Assembly (NCBI RefSeq): GCF_016026235.1
Contig: NZ_CP065613.1
DNA length: 64,000 bases
Source of the DNA: Escherichia coli
GTDB taxonomy: Bacteria > Pseudomonadota > Gammaproteobacteria > Enterobacterales > Enterobacteriaceae
Strand: one strand, 5' to 3'
Part shown: piece after piece, positions 1,162 to 10,453 of the stretch
Numbering within the stretch: the first letter of the stretch is position 1
Layout: each line of letters opens with the position of its first letter
Position numbers and translations under genes: made by a program
Notes under the pieces: generated by a model
The model's input: the letters and a program-made list of their open reading frames with translations, nothing else
What the model was told of the DNA's origin: nothing
Databases searched by the model: none

Positions 1162-1499
1162 CGCGGGAAATGCAGTTTGTCATGCGGCTTGCCCGGGAGT
1201 TCCGGCGGGCAGACTGGCGGCGGATGCTGTCGGAAATGTCGGCCACTGAGCTTGGTGAGTGGGGCGATTATTTCCGGATGCAGAGCTTCAGTGATGTGTG
1301 GATGGATGCGCAGTTTGCCTCGCTGAAGGCATTGATCGTGAGAATGGTGTCCGGCAGCAGCGATGCTGCGGTGGCTGATTTCAGCCTTTTACCGGAAGAG
1401 AACGGGATACCGGAGCGAACGGACGAAGAACTGATGCATCTTGGGGAAGGTATTTCCGGAGGTGTGCGTTATGGACCAGATAGCCAACCTGGTCATTGA
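1137..1499 (+). CDS. T: T segment of tail assembly chaperone G-T; no own start, expected to be expressed by -1 ribosomal frameshift from G
   Basis: ORF in the -1 frame relative to G, open from 1137, overlapping the last 25 nt of G; same arrangement as lambda G/G-T; only A-run in the overlap is GGAAAAG at 1149-1155. Confidence 0.7.
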   Translation, partial: GADAGKVLTREMQFVMRLAREFRRADWRRMLSEMSATELGEWGDYFRMQSFSDVWMDAQFASLKALIVRMVSGSSDAAVADFSLLPEENGIPERTDEELMHLGEGISGGVRYGPDSQPGH

Positions 1500-4400
1500 T
1501 TTGGGGATTGATGCGGCAGAGTTTAAAAATGAAATTCCCCGTATCAAAAACCTTCTGAATGGTGCAGCCAGCGATGCAGAACGGTCTTCTGCCCGTATGC
1601 AGCGTTTTATGGAGCGTCAGACTCAGGCGGCCCGGCAGACAATGCAGGCGGCTTCTTCGGCTGCAACAGCAGCATCAGCCCATGCGCAGACGGTGGAAAA
1701 GAACGCACGGGCTCATGAACGCATGGCCCGTGAGGTGGAACAAACCCGTCTGCGCGTGGATGCCCTGAATCAGAAAATGCGCGAGGAACAGGCGCAGGCC
1801 AGGGCACTGGCGGAGGCGCAGGATAAAGCGGCTGCCGCCTTTTATCGCCAGATTGACAGTGTGAAACAGGCCGGTGCGGGGCTTCAGGAATTACAGCGTA
1901 TTCAGCAGCAGATCCGACAGGCCAGAAACAGTGGCGGGGTTGGTCAGCAGGATTATCTGGCGCTGATTTCGGAGATCACGGCGAAAACCCGTGCCCTGAC
2001 GCAGGCAGAGGAACAGGCCACCCGGCAGAAAGCGGCGTTTATCCGCCAGCTTAAAGAGCAGGCAACCCGCCAGAATCTGTCGTCTTCTGAGTTGCTTCGC
2101 GCCAGGGCGGCTCAGCTGGGGGTAAGCAGTGCTGCAGAAGTGTATATCCGCAAAATGGAGCGGGCAGGAAAAGCCACACATTCGCTGGGGCTGAAAAGTG
2201 CGGCAGCCCGGCGGGAGCTGGGGGTGTTAATCAGTCAGATGGCGCGCGGCAATTTTGGTGCGCTGAGGGGATCCGGGATAACGCTGGCTAACCGTGCCGG
2301 ATGGACAGGCGCACTGATGTCGCCGAAAGGCATGATGACTGGCGGCGTTATTGGCGGACTTGTCGCGGCGGTCCTGGGTCTGGGTAAAGCCTGGCATGAC
2401 GGCCGGAAGGAGGGCGAGGAATTTAACCGTCAGCTGGCGCTGACGGGACATTATGCCGGTGTCACTGTCGGGCAGTTGTGGAAACTCAGCCGGGCCATAT
2501 CCGGGAATGGTATCACGCAACATGCGGCAGCCGGTGCGCTGGCACAGGTGGTGGGCAGTGGGGCATTTCATGGAAACGATATTGGTATGGTGGCGAAAGC
2601 TGCCGCACAGATGGAGCGATCGGTTGGCCAGTCGGTCAGCGATACCATAAATCAGTTTAAGCGGCTGAAGGATGATCCTGTAAATGCCGCGAAGGCGCTG
2701 GACAATGCGTTGCATTTTTTGACTGCCACTCAGCTTGAGCAGATACGCGTCCTTGGGGAGCTGGGGCGGTCCAGTGATGCGGCCCGGATCGCCATGTCTG
2801 CGCTGGCAGAGGAAACCGGTAAACGCACATCTGATATTGATAATAATCTCAATGCGCTGGGTAGTACGCTGCAAACCTTGTCTGACTGGTGGAAGCAGTT
2901 CTGGGATGCGGCCATGAATATTGGTCGTGAAGACTCGCTGGATGCGCAGATTGATGCGTTACAGGAAAAAATTCAGCGCGCGAAAAAATATCCGTGGACA
3001 AACGCCTCCACACAGGTGGAGTACGATCAGCAGCGTCTTAACGATCTTCAGGAGAAAAAACGCCGGAAGGATTTGCAGGATGCAAAAGCGCAGGCAGAAC
3101 GGAATTACCAGGAGCAACAGAAACGCCGGAATGCTGAAAATGCCGCGCTGAACCGGATGAATGAAACGGAAGCTGCACGACATCAGCGGGAAATTGCGCG
3201 TATTAATGCCATGCAGTACGCCGACCAGGCTGTCAGGGATGCGGCGATACAGCGTGAAAATGAACGTTACGAAAAAGCCATTAAGAAAAATACACGGGCA
3301 ACCCGTAATGATGAGGCCACCCGGTTATTGCTGCAGTACAGTCAGCAGCAGGCACAGGTGGAAGGGCAGATTGCTGCTGCCAGACAGTCAGCAGGCATTG
3401 CCACTGAAAGGATGACTGAAGCGCATAAACAGCTTCTGGCCCTGCAGCAGCGCATCAGCGACCTGGACGGGAAAAAGCTGACGGCAGATGAAAAGAGTGT
3501 GCTGGCCCGTAAGAATGAGCTGATTCAGGCGCTGACGCTGCTGGATGTGAAACAGCAGGAGCTGCAGAAACAGACAGCGCTTAACGACCTGAGAAAAAAA
3601 ACGGTTCAGCTGACCAGCCAGCTGGCAGACAAAGAACGTGCACTGCGTGAGCAGCACAATCTGGATATTGCCACTGCAGGTATGGGGGATAAGCAGCGGC
3701 AGCGCTACCAGGCACAGTTGCGCATCCGGCAGGAATACCGGCAACAGTTGCAACAGCTTGAGAATGACAGTCGCCAGAAAGGCACTTACGGGACGGAGGA
3801 CTACCGGAGGGCTGAGGAGGTGCTGAAGGGGAGCCTGAAGCGACAACTGAATGAAAACAAACGCTACTGGCAGGAACTGGAAGTGGCGCAGGGCGACTGG
3901 AAAAACGGTGCCATGCGGGCGTTTCAGAATTTTACGGCGGATGCGGATAATGCGGCGGGAACGGCAGAACAGATGTTTACAGTGGCATTCAGCAGTGCCG
4001 GTAATGCACTGGCGACATTCTGTACCACCGGTAAGCTGAATTTTAAATCCTTCACCTCTTCCCTGTTGTCAGATATGGCCAGAATTATGGCACAGATGGC
4101 CATGATGCAGGCGGTAAAGGGCGTCGGTTCTTTATTCGGCTTCACGACTAATGCTGATGGCGGTGTTTACCAGTCTGCTGATTTGAGTCGCTACAGTGGC
4201 ATGGTGGTTAACCGTCCGACGTTTTTTGCTTTTGCAAAAGGCGCGGGTGTGATGGGGGAAGCGGGACCTGAAGCCATTCTGCCACTGCGTCGCGGTGCTG
4301 ATGGTAAGCTGGGGGTTGTGGCGGATACTGGTGGTTCAGGCATGGTGATGTTTGCCCCGCAGTACAACATTGAGATCAATAACGACGGCACGAACGGGCA

Positions 4401-4512
4401 GATAGGTCCGGCTGCCCTGAAGGTGGTTTATGACCTCGGGAAAAAAGCGGCCGCGGACTTTATGCAACAGCAGGCCCGTGATGGTGGCCGGTTAAGTGGA
4501 GCATACCGGTAA
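1471..4512 (+). CDS. H: Tail tape measure protein H
   Basis: N-terminus (MDQIANLVIDLGIDAAEF) and C-terminus (INNDGTNGQIGPAALK.VYD...RDGG) lambda gpH-like; long Q/A/R-rich coiled-coil centre; start assigned to ATG 1471, which overlaps the end of T. Confidence 0.9.
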   Translation: MDQIANLVIDLGIDAAEFKNEIPRIKNLLNGAASDAERSSARMQRFMERQTQAARQTMQAASSAATAASAHAQTVEKNARAHERMAREVEQTRLRVDALNQKMREEQAQARALAEAQDKAAAAFYRQIDSVKQAGAGLQELQRIQQQIRQARNSGGVGQQDYLALISEITAKTRALTQAEEQATRQKAAFIRQLKEQATRQNLSSSELLRARAAQLGVSSAAEVYIRKMERAGKATHSLGLKSAAARRELGVLISQMARGNFGALRGSGITLANRAGWTGALMSPKGMMTGGVIGGLVAAVLGLGKAWHDGRKEGEEFNRQLALTGHYAGVTVGQLWKLSRAISGNGITQHAAAGALAQVVGSGAFHGNDIGMVAKAAAQMERSVGQSVSDTINQFKRLKDDPVNAAKALDNALHFLTATQLEQIRVLGELGRSSDAARIAMSALAEETGKRTSDIDNNLNALGSTLQTLSDWWKQFWDAAMNIGREDSLDAQIDALQEKIQRAKKYPWTNASTQVEYDQQRLNDLQEKKRRKDLQDAKAQAERNYQEQQKRRNAENAALNRMNETEAARHQREIARINAMQYADQAVRDAAIQRENERYEKAIKKNTRATRNDEATRLLLQYSQQQAQVEGQIAAARQSAGIATERMTEAHKQLLALQQRISDLDGKKLTADEKSVLARKNELIQALTLLDVKQQELQKQTALNDLRKKTVQLTSQLADKERALREQHNLDIATAGMGDKQRQRYQAQLRIRQEYRQQLQQLENDSRQKGTYGTEDYRRAEEVLKGSLKRQLNENKRYWQELEVAQGDWKNGAMRAFQNFTADADNAAGTAEQMFTVAFSSAGNALATFCTTGKLNFKSFTSSLLSDMARIMAQMAMMQAVKGVGSLFGFTTNADGGVYQSADLSRYSGMVVNRPTFFAFAKGAGVMGEAGPEAILPLRRGADGKLGVVADTGGSGMVMFAPQYNIEINNDGTNGQIGPAALKVVYDLGKKAAADFMQQQARDGGRLSGAYR

Positions 4513-4841
4513 TGGAGACGTTTCACTGGAAAGTGCGCCCGGATATGAATGTGGTATCAGAGCCGAAAGTGGTGACAGTGAAGCTGGGCGATGGTTATGA
4601 ACAGCGTCGTGCGGCGGGACTGAATAACCAGTTGTCGACTTACAGCGTGACGATACGTGTTCGTAAAGGTGAACACCCATCTTTAAAAGCCTTTCTGGAA
4701 CGGCACGGTGGCGTCCGCGCATTTCAGTGGACGCCACCTTATGACTGGAAACTGATCAGGGTGGTTTGTCGTAAATGGTCGGCAAGCGTGGGGGCGTTAT
4801 GGGTGACTGTAACGGCCGATTTTGAACAGGTGGTGAACTGA
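4512..4841 (+). CDS. M: Minor tail protein M
   Basis: 109-aa ORF resembling lambda gpM; TAATG overlap with H stop. Confidence 0.9.
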   Translation: METFHWKVRPDMNVVSEPKVVTVKLGDGYEQRRAAGLNNQLSTYSVTIRVRKGEHPSLKAFLERHGGVRAFQWTPPYDWKLIRVVCRKWSASVGALWVTVTADFEQVVN

Positions 4842-5539
4842 TGCAGGATATCCGGCAGGAAACACTGAATGAATGCACCCGTGCGGAGCAGTCAGCCCGG
4901 GTGGAGCTCTGGGAAATCGATCTGACAGAGGTCGGTGGTGAGCGTTATTTTTTCTGTAATGAGCAGAACGAAAAAGGTGAGCCGGTCACCTGGCAGGGGC
5001 GGCAGTATCAGGCATACCCCATTCAGGGGTCGGGGTTTGAACTGAACGGCAGGGGCTGTGCTGCCCGTCCGACACTGACGGTCTCTAACCTGCACGGCAT
5101 GGTCACCGGTATGGCGGAAGATCTGCAGAGTCTGGTCGGCGGAACGGTGGTCCGGCGTAAGGTTTACGCCCGTTTTCTGGATGCGGTGAACTTCGTCAAC
5201 GGAAACAGCGACGCCGATCCGGAACAGGAGGTGATCAGCCGCTGGCGCATCGAGCAGTGCAGCGAACTGAGCGCGGTCAGTGCCTCTTTTGTGCTGGCCA
5301 CACCAACGGAGACGGATGGCGCGGTTTTCCCGGGGCGTATCATGCTGGCGAATACCTGTATGTGGACTTACCGTTCTGATGAGTGTGGTTACACGGGCAG
5401 GGCAGTGGCTGACGAGTTCGACAAACCAACGACGGATATCCGGAAGGACAAATGCAGCAAGTGTATGCGCGGGTGTGAGTTGCGCAACAATACCGGTAAT
5501 TTCGGCGGTTTCCTTTCCATCAATAAACTTTCTCAGTAA
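4841..5539 (+). CDS. L: Minor tail protein L
   Basis: 232-aa ORF resembling lambda gpL, Cys cluster near C-terminus; TGATG overlap with M. Confidence 0.9.
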   Translation: MQDIRQETLNECTRAEQSARVELWEIDLTEVGGERYFFCNEQNEKGEPVTWQGRQYQAYPIQGSGFELNGRGCAARPTLTVSNLHGMVTGMAEDLQSLVGGTVVRRKVYARFLDAVNFVNGNSDADPEQEVISRWRIEQCSELSAVSASFVLATPTETDGAVFPGRIMLANTCMWTYRSDECGYTGRAVADEFDKPTTDIRKDKCSKCMRGCELRNNTGNFGGFLSINKLSQ

Positions 5540-5543
5540 ATCC

Positions 5544-6287
5544 ATGACACAGACAGAATCAGCGATTCTGGCGCACGCCCGGCGATGTGCGCCAGCGGAG
5601 TTGTGCGGCTTCGTGGTGAGAACGCCGGAGGGGGAAAGATATTTTCCCTGCGTGAATATCTCCGGTGAGCCGGAGGCGTATTTCCGGATGTCGCCGGAGG
5701 ACTGGCTGCGGGCAGAGATGCAGGGTGAGATTGTGGCGCTGGTCCACAGCCACCCCGGTGGTCTGCCCTGGCTGAGTGAGGCTGACAGGCGGCTGCAGGT
5801 GCAGAGCGATTTGCCGTGGTGGCTGGTCTGCCGGGGTGAGATTCATAAATTCCGCTGTGTGCCGCATCTTACCGGGCGGCGCTTTGAGCACGGGGTGACG
5901 GACTGTTACACGCTGTTCCGGGATGCTTATCATCTGGCGGGGATTGAGATGCCGGATTTTCATCGCGGGGATGACTGGTGGCGTCACGGTCAGAATCTCT
6001 ATCTTGACAATATGGAGGTGACGGGTTTTTACCGTGTCGCACTGACAGAGGCACAGCCGGGCGATGTGCTGCTGTGCTGTTTTGGTTCATCGGTGCCGAA
6101 TCATGCCGCCATTTACTGCGGTGACGGCGGGCTGCTGCACCATATTCCTGAACAACTGAGCAAACGAGAGAGGTACACCGACAAATGGCAGCGACGCACA
6201 CACTCCCTCTGGCGTCACCGGGCATGGCGCGCATCTGCCTTTACGGGGATTTACAACGATTTGGTCGCCGCATCGACCTTCGTGTGA
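5544..6287 (+). CDS. K: Tail tip assembly protein K (JAB/MPN + NlpC/P60-like)
   Basis: MTQTESAILAHARRCAP...HSHPGG motif; start set at ATG 5544 directly after L stop, not at the upstream ORF-track start 5280. Confidence 0.85.
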   Translation: MTQTESAILAHARRCAPAELCGFVVRTPEGERYFPCVNISGEPEAYFRMSPEDWLRAEMQGEIVALVHSHPGGLPWLSEADRRLQVQSDLPWWLVCRGEIHKFRCVPHLTGRRFEHGVTDCYTLFRDAYHLAGIEMPDFHRGDDWWRHGQNLYLDNMEVTGFYRVALTEAQPGDVLLCCFGSSVPNHAAIYCGDGGLLHHIPEQLSKRERYTDKWQRRTHSLWRHRAWRASAFTGIYNDLVAASTFV

Positions 6288-6826
6288 AAACGGGGGCTGA
6301 AGCCATCCGGGCACTGGCCACACAGCTCCCGGCGTTTCGTCAGAAACTGAGTGACGGCTGGTATCAGGTGCGCATTGCCGGGCGTGATGCAGGTGAAACC
6401 GAATTGTCTGCCCGTCTTAATGAGCCGCTGGCAAATGGTGCAGTGATCCACATAGTACCGCGTCTGGTGGGAGCTAAAAGTGGCGGTGTGTTTCAGGCGG
6501 TGCTGGGGGCGGCTGTTATGGCGGTTGCTATATGGATGCCGGGGGTAGGAATTATGGCGAGTAATCTGCTGTTTTCTCTCGGTGCCAGTATGACGCTTGG
6601 CGGTGTTGCACAGATGCTGGCACCGAAAGCCAGAACTCCCCGTACACAGACAACGGATAACGGTAAGCAGAACACGTATTTCTCGTCACTGGATAACATG
6701 GTTGCCCAGGGCAATGTTCTGCCCGTTCTGTACGGTGAAATGCGCGTGGGGTCACGTGTGGTTTCTCAGGAGATCAGCACGGCAGACGAAGGGGATGGTG
6801 GTCAGGTTGTGGTGATTGGTCGCTGA
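6185..6826 (+). CDS. I: Tail tip assembly protein I
   Basis: MAATHTLPLASPGMARICLYGDLQRFG...; ubiquitin-like N-terminus and hydrophobic C-terminus typical of lambda gpI; overlaps K 3' end; alternative start at 6224. Confidence 0.8.
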   Translation: MAATHTLPLASPGMARICLYGDLQRFGRRIDLRVKTGAEAIRALATQLPAFRQKLSDGWYQVRIAGRDAGETELSARLNEPLANGAVIHIVPRLVGAKSGGVFQAVLGAAVMAVAIWMPGVGIMASNLLFSLGASMTLGGVAQMLAPKARTPRTQTTDNGKQNTYFSSLDNMVAQGNVLPVLYGEMRVGSRVVSQEISTADEGDGGQVVVIGR

Positions 6827-6886: not shown

Positions 6887-9800
6887 ATGGGTAAAGGCAG
6901 CAGTAAGGGGCATACCCCGCGCGAAGCGAAGGACAACCTGAAATCCACGCAGTTGCTGAGTGTGATTGATGCCATCAGCGAAGGGCCGGTTGAAGGTCCG
7001 GTGGATGGATTAAAAAGCGTGCTGCTGAACGGTACGCCGGTCCTGGACAGCGAGGGGAAGACAAACTTTTCCGGTGTTACGGTGGTGTTCCGCGCCGGCG
7101 AGCAGGAGCAGACACCGCCGGAGGGGTTTGAATCTTCCGGCTCAGAGACTGTGCTGGGTACGGAAGTGAAATACGACACGCCGATCACCCGGACCATCAC
7201 GTCGGCAAACATTGATCGTCTGCGCCTGACCTTCGGTGTGCAGGCACTGGTGGAAACCACCTCAAAGGGGGACCGGAATCCGTCGGAAGTCCGCCTGCTG
7301 GTTCAGATACAGCGTAACGGTGGCTGGGTGACGGAAAAAGACATCACCATTAAGGGCAAAACCACTTCGCAGTATCTGGCCTCGGTGGTGGTGGGTAACC
7401 TGCCGCCGCGCCCGTTTAATATCCGGATGCGCAGGATGACACCGGACAGCACCACAGACCAGCTGCAGAACAAAACGCTCTGGTCGTCGTACACCGAAAT
7501 CATCGATGTGAAACAGTGCTACCCGAACACGGCGCTGGTCGGCGTGCAGGTGGATTCAGAGCAGTTCGGTAACCAGCAGGTGAGTCGCAATTATCATCTT
7601 CGCGGGCGCATTCTGCAGGTGCCGTCGAACTATAACCCGCAGACGCGGCAATACAGCGGTATCTGGGACGGAACGCTTAAGCCAGCATACAGCAACAACA
7701 TGGCCTGGTGTCTGTGGGACATGCTCACTCATCCGCGCTACGGCATGGGGAAACGTCTTGGTGCGGCAGATGTGGACAAATGGGCGCTGTATGTCATCGG
7801 CCAGTACTGCGACCAGTCAGTGCCGGACGGATTTGGCGGCACGGAGCCGCGCATCACCTGTAACGCTTACCTGACCACACAGCGTAAGGCGTGGGATGTT
7901 CTCAGTGATTTCTGCTCGGCGATGCGCTGTATGCCGGTATGGAACGGGCAGACGCTGACGTTCGTGCAGGACCGACCGTCGGATAAGGTGTGGACCTATA
8001 ACCGCAGTAATGTGGTGATGCCGGATGATGGCGCGCCGTTCCGTTACAGCTTCAGCGCCCTGAAGGACCGCCATAATGCCGTTGAGGTGAACTGGATTGA
8101 TCCGGACAACGGTCATGAGACGGCGACAGAGCTTGTGGAGGACACGCAGGCCATTCTCCGTTACGGTCGTAACGTCACGAAGATGGATGCCTTTGGCTGT
8201 ACCAGCCGGGGACAGGCGCACCGCGCCGGGCTGTGGCTGATTAAAACAGAACTGCTGGAAACGCAGACCGTGGACTTCAGCGTGGGTGCTGAAGGGCTTC
8301 GCCATGTACCGGGCGATGTCATTGAAATCTGCGATGATGACTATGCCGGTATCAGCACCGGCGGGCGCGTGCTGGCGGTGAACAGCCAGACCCGGACGCT
8401 GACGCTCGACCGTGAAATCACGCTGCCATCCTCCGGTACCACGCTGATAAGCCTGGTTGACGGAAGTGGCAATCCGGTCAGCGTGGAGGTCCAGTCCGTC
8501 ACCGACGGCGTGAAGGTGAAAGTGAGCCGTATTCCTGACGGCGTTGCCGGATACAGCGTGTGGGGGCTGAAGCTGCCGACGCTGCACCAGCGCCTGTTCC
8601 GCTGTGTGAGTATCCGTGAGAACGACGACGGCACGTATGCCATCACCGCCGTGCAGCATGTGCCGGAAAAAGAGGCCATTGTGGATAACGGGGCACACTT
8701 TGACAGTGACCGGCGCGGCACGGTGAATGGTGTCACGCCGCCAGCAGTGCAGCACCTGACCGCAGAAGTCATCGCAGGCAGCGGGGAATATCAGGTGCTG
8801 GCGCGCTGGGACACGCCGAAGGTGGTGAAGGGGGTGAGCTTCCTGCTTCGCCTGACCGTGGCAGCGGATGACGGCAGTGAGCGGCTGGTCAGCACAGCCC
8901 GGACGACGGAAACCACATATCGTTTCACGCAGCTTGCGTTGGGGCGTTATACGCTGACAGTCCGGGCGGTAAATGCCCGGGGGCAGCAGGGCGATCCGGT
9001 GTCGGTATCGTTCCGGATTGCGGCACCGGCAGCGCCTGTCACTATTGAACTGATACCGGGGTATTTTCAGATAACGGCGGTCCCGAAACTGGCTGTATAT
9101 GACCCGACGGTGCAGTTTGAGTTCTGGTTTTCGGAAAAGCGGATTGCGGATATCAGGCAGGTTGAAACCACAGCCCGCTATCTTGGCACGGCGCTGTACT
9201 GGATAGCCGCCAGTATCAATATCAAACCGGGCCATGATTATTATTTTTACGTTCGCAGTGTGAACACCGTTGGCAAATCGGCATTTGTGGAGGCCGTCGG
9301 TCGGGCGAGCGATGATGCGGAAGGTTATCTGAGTTTTTATAAAGGGTTGATCAATAAAACGCATCTCGGCAAGGAGTTGTGGACGCAGATTGATAACGGT
9401 CAGCTTGCGCCGGACCTGACTGAAATCAGGACGTCCATTACGAATGTCAGCAATGAAATCACGCAAACCGTCAATAAAAAACTGGAAAATCAGAGTGCTG
9501 CAATCCAGCAGATACAGAAAGTTCAGGTTGATACAAATAATAACCTGAACAGCATGTGGGCTGTGAAGCTGCAACAGATGAAGGACGGACGCCTTTATAT
9601 TGCGGGTATCGGTGCCGGTATTGAGAATACGCCAGCAGGAATGCAGAGTCAGGTGCTGCTGGCGGCAGACAGGATTGCGATGATTAATCCTGCGAATGGC
9701 AACACAAAGCCGATGTTTGTTGGTCAGGGCGATCAGATATTCATGAACGACGTGTTCCTGAAACGCCTGACGGCTCCGACCATTACCAGCGGCGGTAATC

Positions 9801-10384
9801 CTCCGGCATTTTCCCTGACACCTGGCGGACGGCTGACGGCGAAAAATGCCGATATCAGCGGTAACGTGAACGCGAACTCCGGGACGCTCAACAACGTCAC
9901 GATTAACCAGAACTGTACGATTAAGGGCATGCTGGAGGCGACCCAGGTCAGAGGGGATTTCGTTAAAGCTGTATCAAAAGCCTTCCCGAAAAAAGTCGGT
10001 ACGTGGGGTAACACGGAAACACCAAACGGTACGGTTACAGTCACCATCAGCGATGATCATAACTTTGACCGCCAGATTATTATTCCGCCCATTATTTTTA
10101 ACGGTATAGCGTATGACGATCCGGGGAGCGGAAATAACCTAGGAGGCACGCGATACACGGGTTATGGTTTTGAAGTTCGCAAAAACGGCGTATTAATCGC
10201 ATCCAGAGAAACTAAAGGGGCCATTCCCGGTAGTTACAGTGCAGTTATTGATATGCCTAGTGGTGGTGGTAGCGTCACTCTGGAGTTTAAGATTTTCCAG
10301 AAAGGCAATCAGGGGGCAGGCAATATCACCGACTGTACGGTGATTGTGACCAAAAAAGCGGCTTCCGGCATCAGTATTCGTTGA
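6887..10384 (+). CDS. J: Host specificity (central tail fibre / tip attachment) protein J
   Basis: 1165-aa ORF, lambda gpJ-like N-terminal two thirds with FN3-like repeats, divergent C-terminus; GAGGA before ATG. Confidence 0.9.
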
Positions 10385-10404
10385 AATTGTTATAACCCAT
10401 ATAA

Positions 10405-10431
10405 GGGCACCAGAAATGGTGCCTTTTTTAT
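10405..10431 (+). terminator. Rho-independent terminator after J
   Basis: GGGCACC-AGAAAT-GGTGCC followed by TTTTTTATT. Confidence 0.6.
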
Positions 10432-10453
10432 TGCAGAAAAGCGAGAGGTAATT

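Follow-up and report, generated by a model that had tools for sequence, protein, structure and literature searches.

The tape measure protein gene of a lambda-like Escherichia coli prophage and the location of its extra length relative to lambda gpH

The window analyzed in this study, a stretch of 64,000 nucleotides (nt) of Escherichia coli DNA (contig NZ_CP065613.1 of assembly GCF_016026235.1), begins within the tail genes of a lambda-like prophage, and its positions 1471-4512 on the plus strand hold a long gene homologous to lambda H. The first-pass annotation described the product as a tape measure protein (TMP) with ends resembling those of lambda gpH and an expanded coiled-coil centre, and expected from it a tail longer than that of lambda. 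The question that this locus raises is in which part of the protein the additional residues are found, and whether they would lengthen the tail. We report that the gene almost certainly encodes, in an E. coli prophage of the lambda-like siphovirus type, the tail length tape measure protein, with 1013 amino acids (aa), and that the excess of this protein over lambda gpH resides in one N-proximal module and not in the centre.

Identity and length of the protein

The assignment to the TMP family was carried by matches well above the respective cut-offs. The protein matched Pfam TMP_2 (PF06791) at residues 228-426 with 159.4 bits (cut-off 30.2; E = 1.3e-46), TMP_4 at residues 613-690 with 60.6 bits (cut-off 27) and Tape_meas_lam_C (PF09718) at residues 808-882 with 85.6 bits (cut-off 23; E = 2.5e-24), and it reached 276.2 bits with NCBIfam TIGR01541 (cut-off 104.75). 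In addition, phrog_24, described as tail length tape measure protein, was matched with 1039 bits across residues 1-1013. Lambda gpH (PDB 8IYK, 8K35, and 9E7M) also belongs to phrog_24 and has the same order of TMP_2 followed by Tape_meas_lam_C as well as the same flanking genes, although TMP_4 was not detected in it at E ≤ 0.01. The lambda gpH chain 8iyk_H was matched at E = 1.2e-42, and BLASTP against lambda gpH gave 1e-46 over residues 277-1013, with 25% identity over the 737 aa that could be aligned. No evidence against the TMP identity was found. In the AlphaFold2 (AF2) model the protein is long and mainly alpha-helical, with DSSP helix from residue 18 to 888 and short breaks, in a monomer prediction whose mean predicted local distance difference test (pLDDT) score is 49. 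Scores as low as this are to be expected when a TMP is modelled as a monomer. The gene had been recognized rightly in the first-pass annotation as coding for a lambda gpH-like protein, yet it is an ordinary one and already annotated in public genomes.

With respect to its start codon, the gene is part of an uninterrupted plus-strand open reading frame (ORF) that closes at 4512. In its maximal form this ORF is opened by TTG 1441 and comprises 1023 aa, which is the length that had been given for positions 1471-4512; these coordinates code for 1013 aa plus the stop codon. TTG 1441 was ruled out as the start on the basis of the ribosome-binding site of ATG 1471, a Shine-Dalgarno sequence (GGAGG) at 1458-1462 with a spacer of 8 nt, and of the alignment of the N-terminus. 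The latter (MDQIANLVIDL) coincides residue for residue with the start of lambda gpH, MAEPVGDLVVDL, and with those of seven of the eight other homologues. Additionally, RefSeq annotates a gene of identical 3042-nt extent with the equivalent ATG in the prophage of strain CFSAN029787, and the phage records likewise use an ATG equivalent to 1471. A true product of 1023 aa, starting with MGKVFPEVCV, would agree with the frame being open from TTG 1441, but given the Shine-Dalgarno sequence, the shared N-terminus and the concordant annotations it is extremely improbable. The length given for lambda gpH in the first-pass annotation, 853 aa, was confirmed. Since the window protein has 1013 aa, the excess is 160 aa, and not about 170 as had been estimated.

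Both proteins share a set of landmarks: the first 57 residues or so, a Gly-rich hydrophobic segment, a helical centre of nearly equal length and a C-terminal helix. The likeness of the two termini, which the first-pass annotation had noticed, was verified. At the N-terminus, residues 1-57 (positions 1471-1641) correspond to lambda gpH 1-57 with 18 of 55 residues identical (33%; BLASTP 4e-08). The Gly-rich segment, GMMTGGVIGGLVAAVLGLG, comprises residues 287-305 (positions 2329-2385), has a Kyte-Doolittle 19-residue mean of 1.71 and aligns with its counterpart at about residues 113-140 of lambda gpH, of which 116-140 have been discussed as a possible transmembrane segment (PMC12617516). At the other end, the helix of residues 978-1009 (positions 4402-4497) is identical to lambda gpH 818-849 in 20 of 32 residues, and matched the 32-residue gpH chain 9e7m_Ha (E = 5.8e-05) and also 8iyk_H. 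In lambda, three copies of this helix form a coiled coil that gpI holds at the tip of the tail (PMC10721106, PMC12617516). The C-terminal helix of the window protein is, judging by its sequence, probably the counterpart of this gpI-bound coiled coil, and the gene of an I homologue lies at 6284-6826. The Gly-rich region that follows Tape_meas_lam_C, and in which the cleavage of gpH to gpH* is presumed to take place, is 21 aa longer in lambda than in the window protein. According to PMC12617516, the site of this cleavage has yet to be mapped in lambda itself.

Position of the extra length relative to lambda gpH

The length of each segment was taken from the Pfam match coordinates in both proteins. 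The stretch preceding TMP_2 comprises 227 aa in the window protein and 53 aa in lambda gpH, a difference of +174. TMP_2 itself (positions 2152-2748; residues 54-256 in lambda) has 199 and 203 aa, respectively (−4), and the stretch between TMP_2 and Tape_meas_lam_C has 381 and 370 aa (+11). Tape_meas_lam_C (positions 3892-4116; residues 627-701 in lambda) has 75 aa in both proteins (0), while the C-terminal remainder is of 131 aa in the window protein and 152 aa in lambda (−21), so that the net difference between 1013 and 853 aa is +160. The centre, which the first-pass annotation took to be expanded, corresponds to residues 427-807 (positions 2749-3891), a region that includes TMP_4 and is helical in the AF2 model, and by the Pfam coordinates it is only 11 aa longer than in lambda.

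The alignments gave the same result. BLASTP paired residue 277 of the window protein with residue 113 of lambda gpH, and the C-terminus of the one with that of the other. In an alignment of nine sequences, lambda was alone in lacking a block that matches residues 57-238, approximately, of the window protein (positions 1639-2184). The block was present in the TMPs of mEp460 (1021 aa), Gifsy-1 (1031 aa), Fels-1 (1053 aa), phi80 (1045 aa), Providencia PSTCR8lys (1023 aa), Salmonella SPF_0923 (1077 aa), and Aeromonas pAEv1818 (975 aa). It is also contained in the phrog_24 profile, where it takes up positions 88-244; the window protein spans positions 26-1056 of this profile and lambda only 205-1055. 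The entire excess in length is explained by this N-proximal segment, which has about 175 aa. The difference is a single N-proximal module, then, and the centre is not expanded. The direction of the change had also been taken the wrong way round: since all eight other aligned homologues (975-1077 aa) and the phrog_24 profile include the segment, lambda gpH, with its 853 aa, is the short form of the family, from which the module is missing, and the long architecture is the common one.

The first-pass annotation proposed that the extra sequence was helical and rich in Q, A, R, and E, and that the idea would fall if it turned out to be a non-helical insert. In 50-residue windows, these four residues made up a fraction of 0.44-0.64 between residues 51 and 250, and of 0.34-0.60 between residues 501 and 800. 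The AF2 model, run with the nine-sequence alignment, gave DSSP helices at residues 18-153, 159-201, 205-215, and 219-238, and a hydrophobic periodicity of 3.5 residues, as in heptads, was found over residues 1-196 (z = 2.1-5.4) and was also significant at residues 393-504. Both analyses support a helical module and not a non-helical insert. Counting against this, the confidence of the model within the module is low (pLDDT of about 35-67), and its helicity is a prediction only. We used the secondary structure alone, as fold matches are meaningless for a model of such confidence. The possibility that the module arose by duplication within the protein was discarded: in the comparison of residues 57-238 with the rest of the protein, the best BLASTP score was 25.4 bits and shuffled sequences gave 26.3 ± 3.7 on average. 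A weak likeness of the module to lambda residues 576-612 (E = 0.014 over 43 aa) was judged to be compositional.

A further trait of the gene was observed at the start of TMP_2 (alignment columns 275-325, approximately, or residues 238-275 of the window protein), where two alternative variants occur across the family. The lambda-type motif, GxSxGQYxxAMRxLPxQxTD...QQGGQxKD, is present in lambda, Providencia PSTCR8lys, and Salmonella SPF_0923. The other, GLKSAAARRELGVL...GALRGSGITLANRAGW, is found in the window protein, mEp460, Gifsy-1, Fels-1, phi80, and Aeromonas pAEv1818. The variant carried does not depend on the presence of the N-proximal segment, and therefore shuffling of modules inside the gene is indicated.

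With regard to its relatives, the gene showed 99.8% nucleotide identity to prophage genes of strain CFSAN029787 and of eight other genomes. The protein of the CFSAN029787 prophage, which RefSeq names phage tail tape measure protein (WP_046881168.1), has 4 aa differences from that of the window. The TMPs of phages mEp460, cdtI, Ayreon, Tritos, phi458, and others were around 87% identical to it over the full length. All those named, and WP_046881168.1, are collinear with the window protein and have the N-proximal segment and the C-terminus in common with it. Their neighbourhood is the same, with V, G, and T upstream and M, L, K, I, and J downstream, both in the mEp460/Tritos-type phages and around WP_046881168.1. 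The differences are that about 13% of the residues are substituted in the phage proteins of the mEp460 group, and that the TMPs of mEp460 and Tritos (1021 aa) exceed the window protein by 8 aa, owing to two small indels, one of 3 aa around residue 606 and one of 5 aa around residue 892. The Salmonella TMPs of Gifsy-1, Gifsy-2, and Fels-1 are also of the long form, and share 59-63% identity with the window protein over the full length. The TMP of phi80 has the N-proximal segment as well, but it aligns with the window protein at residues 3-866 only (38.5% identity) and its C-terminal module is different. In the TMPs of Fels-1 and phi80 there is an additional central stretch of about 35 aa which is absent from the window protein.

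Tail genes, tail length and state of the prophage

The tail genes of the window are arranged in the lambda order, V-G-T-H-M-L-K-I-J, each having been assigned by the Pfam family of its lambda counterpart; all of them are on the plus strand, with H following V, G, and T and preceding M, L, K, I, and J. The gene of the major tail tube protein V, truncated at its 5' end by the start of the window, lies at 1-716 (Phage_TTP_12, 3.9e-65; Big_2, 4.2e-11). It codes for a tube domain of the lambda type and, at the C-terminus, an Ig-like domain, and its position agrees with that of the 246-aa V gene of the CFSAN029787 prophage. The tail assembly chaperone G is encoded at 775-1161 (Phage_TAC_2, 3.1e-40; the RefSeq equivalent, gpG, is of 387 nt), and the T reading frame extends over 1149-1499 (Phage_tail_T, 3.9e-15), with the annotated T ORF at 1170-1499. 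The latter frame is −1 relative to that of G and is open from a candidate slip site at the end of G. Downstream of H are the homologues of the distal tail protein M at 4512-4841 (Phage_min_tail, 1.3e-39), the tail tip protein L at 4841-5539 (Phage_tail_L, 1.6e-96), and K at 5544-6287 (JAB and NlpC/P60). The I homologue has been located above (Lambda_tail_I, 8.3e-24; start taken from the RefSeq equivalent), and the central tail fibre J homologue is at 6887-10384 (six gpJ-specific Pfam domains and a general fn3 match).

By analogy with lambda, the TMP, together with the G and G-T chaperones, would form a mostly helical core around which hexamer rings of V would polymerize. Its C-terminal helix would be anchored to a trimer of I in the tip complex (M, L, I, and J), and growth of the tube would halt once the TMP was covered. 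In lambda, gpH* is ejected and contributes to a trans-envelope channel (PMC10721106, PMC12617516), and the window protein may do the same at infection. The G-T fusion is presumably made by a −1 frameshift near 1149-1155. From this analogy we infer the ruler function, the G-T frameshifting, the anchoring to the tip, and a tail longer than that of lambda. According to PMC1796659, which refers to Katsura & Hendrix 1984 and to Katsura 1987, deletions and duplications in lambda H and in the TMPs of TP901-1 and TM4 alter tail length by approximately 0.15 nm per residue. The tail tube of lambda has 32 V rings with a rise of 42 Å. We computed from this rule that the 160 extra residues would add some 24-25 nm to the tail, or around 6 more V rings.

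Several observations weigh against this reading, above all against its size. The only comparison from a single laboratory that we found is that of Tritos, whose TMP of 1021 aa is 87% identical to that of the window, and Perceval, whose TMP of 853 aa is 99% identical to lambda gpH. In the same transmission electron microscopy (TEM) study, their tails measured 163.5 ± 2.4 and 156.8 ± 5.3 nm, respectively (PMC9928086), a difference of 6.7 nm versus the 25-26 nm, approximately, expected from 168 extra residues. Since the tube proteins of both phages share 56% identity in a gapless alignment, the rise of their rings should be similar. Moreover, the tails of Ayreon were given as about 120 nm in its genome announcement, an approximate figure that also disagrees with a proportional lengthening. 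A literature search provided no usable tail lengths for mEp460, Ev081, phi458, HannyBb, Gifsy, or phi80. On the side of assembly, the candidate G-T slip site at 1149-1155 is G GAA AAG and not the canonical G GGA AAG of lambda. Re-pairing in the P site on this sequence would be imperfect.

These tail lengths could be explained if the N-proximal segment of about 175 aa did not serve as ruler length, or did so only in part, the tails being then of about the length of lambda despite the 160 additional residues. Such a segment might fold back, sit in the neck near the end of the DNA, or serve mainly in the channel formed after ejection. The Tritos and Perceval values, the gapless likeness of their tube proteins, and the Ayreon figure speak for it. 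The TEM values are, however, of modest quality, having been obtained by negative stain with unstated particle numbers and from a low-titre stock in the case of Tritos. In addition, deletions and duplications in lambda, TP901-1, and TM4 have confirmed the ruler rule, and the helices predicted for the segment are long and uninterrupted and show a heptad periodicity like that of ruler sequence. We therefore hold this explanation to be rather unlikely, and give even less credit to the more specific proposal that the module adds little or nothing to tail length and has some other job, for example close to the end of the DNA on the head-proximal side of the tube, or in the trans-envelope channel once the protein has been ejected. 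The ruler reading is retained, and a tail longer than that of lambda is plausible in its direction. The expectation of the first-pass annotation follows from an established rule. The size of the effect that this rule predicts is not clearly supported by the TEM of the relatives, in which some 7 nm were observed instead of about 25.

The length of the TMP would be devoid of phenotypic effect if its gene were a decaying remnant in a defective prophage that makes no functional tail. In favour of this, the J, lom, tail fibre, and ipaH genes of the nearest sequenced copy, the 99.8% identical CFSAN029787 prophage, are pseudogenes with frameshifts. The window, in turn, opens inside V, of which about 18 codons are missing, and the head, lysis, and regulatory/immunity genes lie outside it. 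But in the window, the tail genes from G to J are all intact ORFs with full-length family matches, and V is incomplete only because the window begins inside it. The genes between 6887 and 13103 are likewise intact here, namely J (1165 aa), lom (199 aa), a tail fibre N-terminal-domain protein (484 aa), and a DUF4376 protein (207 aa), and the few residues by which the TMP departs from its nearest relative involve no stop codon or frameshift. A defective remnant is held to be fairly unlikely, and a TMP gene that belongs to an intact set of tail genes is the reading that we maintain.

At the right end of the prophage there is a cargo gene, located on the minus strand at 13283-15046 and intact. It codes for an IpaH-family type III effector of 587 aa, with LRR_TTSS, LRR, and NEL E3 ubiquitin ligase domains. 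The prophage meets the chromosome inside yacH (DUF3300), at a junction at approximately 15527-15530. The yacH ORF (15507-16595, minus strand) has 362 aa here and 585 aa in strain FDAARGOS_943, so that the prophage appears to be inserted within yacH. The junction was not found among 5426 complete E. coli RefSeq genomes, none of which covered at least 80% of window positions 10400-22000.

Distribution and significance

In E. coli, both forms of the TMP are common: at a coverage of at least 80%, the long form was found in 1825 of the 5426 complete genomes, about one third of them, and the lambda form in 3694. The significance of the window gene is small in this regard, as it codes for a routinely annotated protein of a common type for which propagated relatives exist.

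The useful outcome of this study is a correction. It is lambda gpH that represents the short form of the family, and the difference between both forms consists of one N-proximal module, predicted to be helical, and not of an expanded centre. There also remains a mildly interesting loose end, which is that the TEM of a close relative did not show the proportional lengthening that the ruler rule predicts. If it were true that the module adds little or nothing to the tail, the conversion of residues to nanometres on which the rule is based would fail across natural variants of the lambda gpH family.

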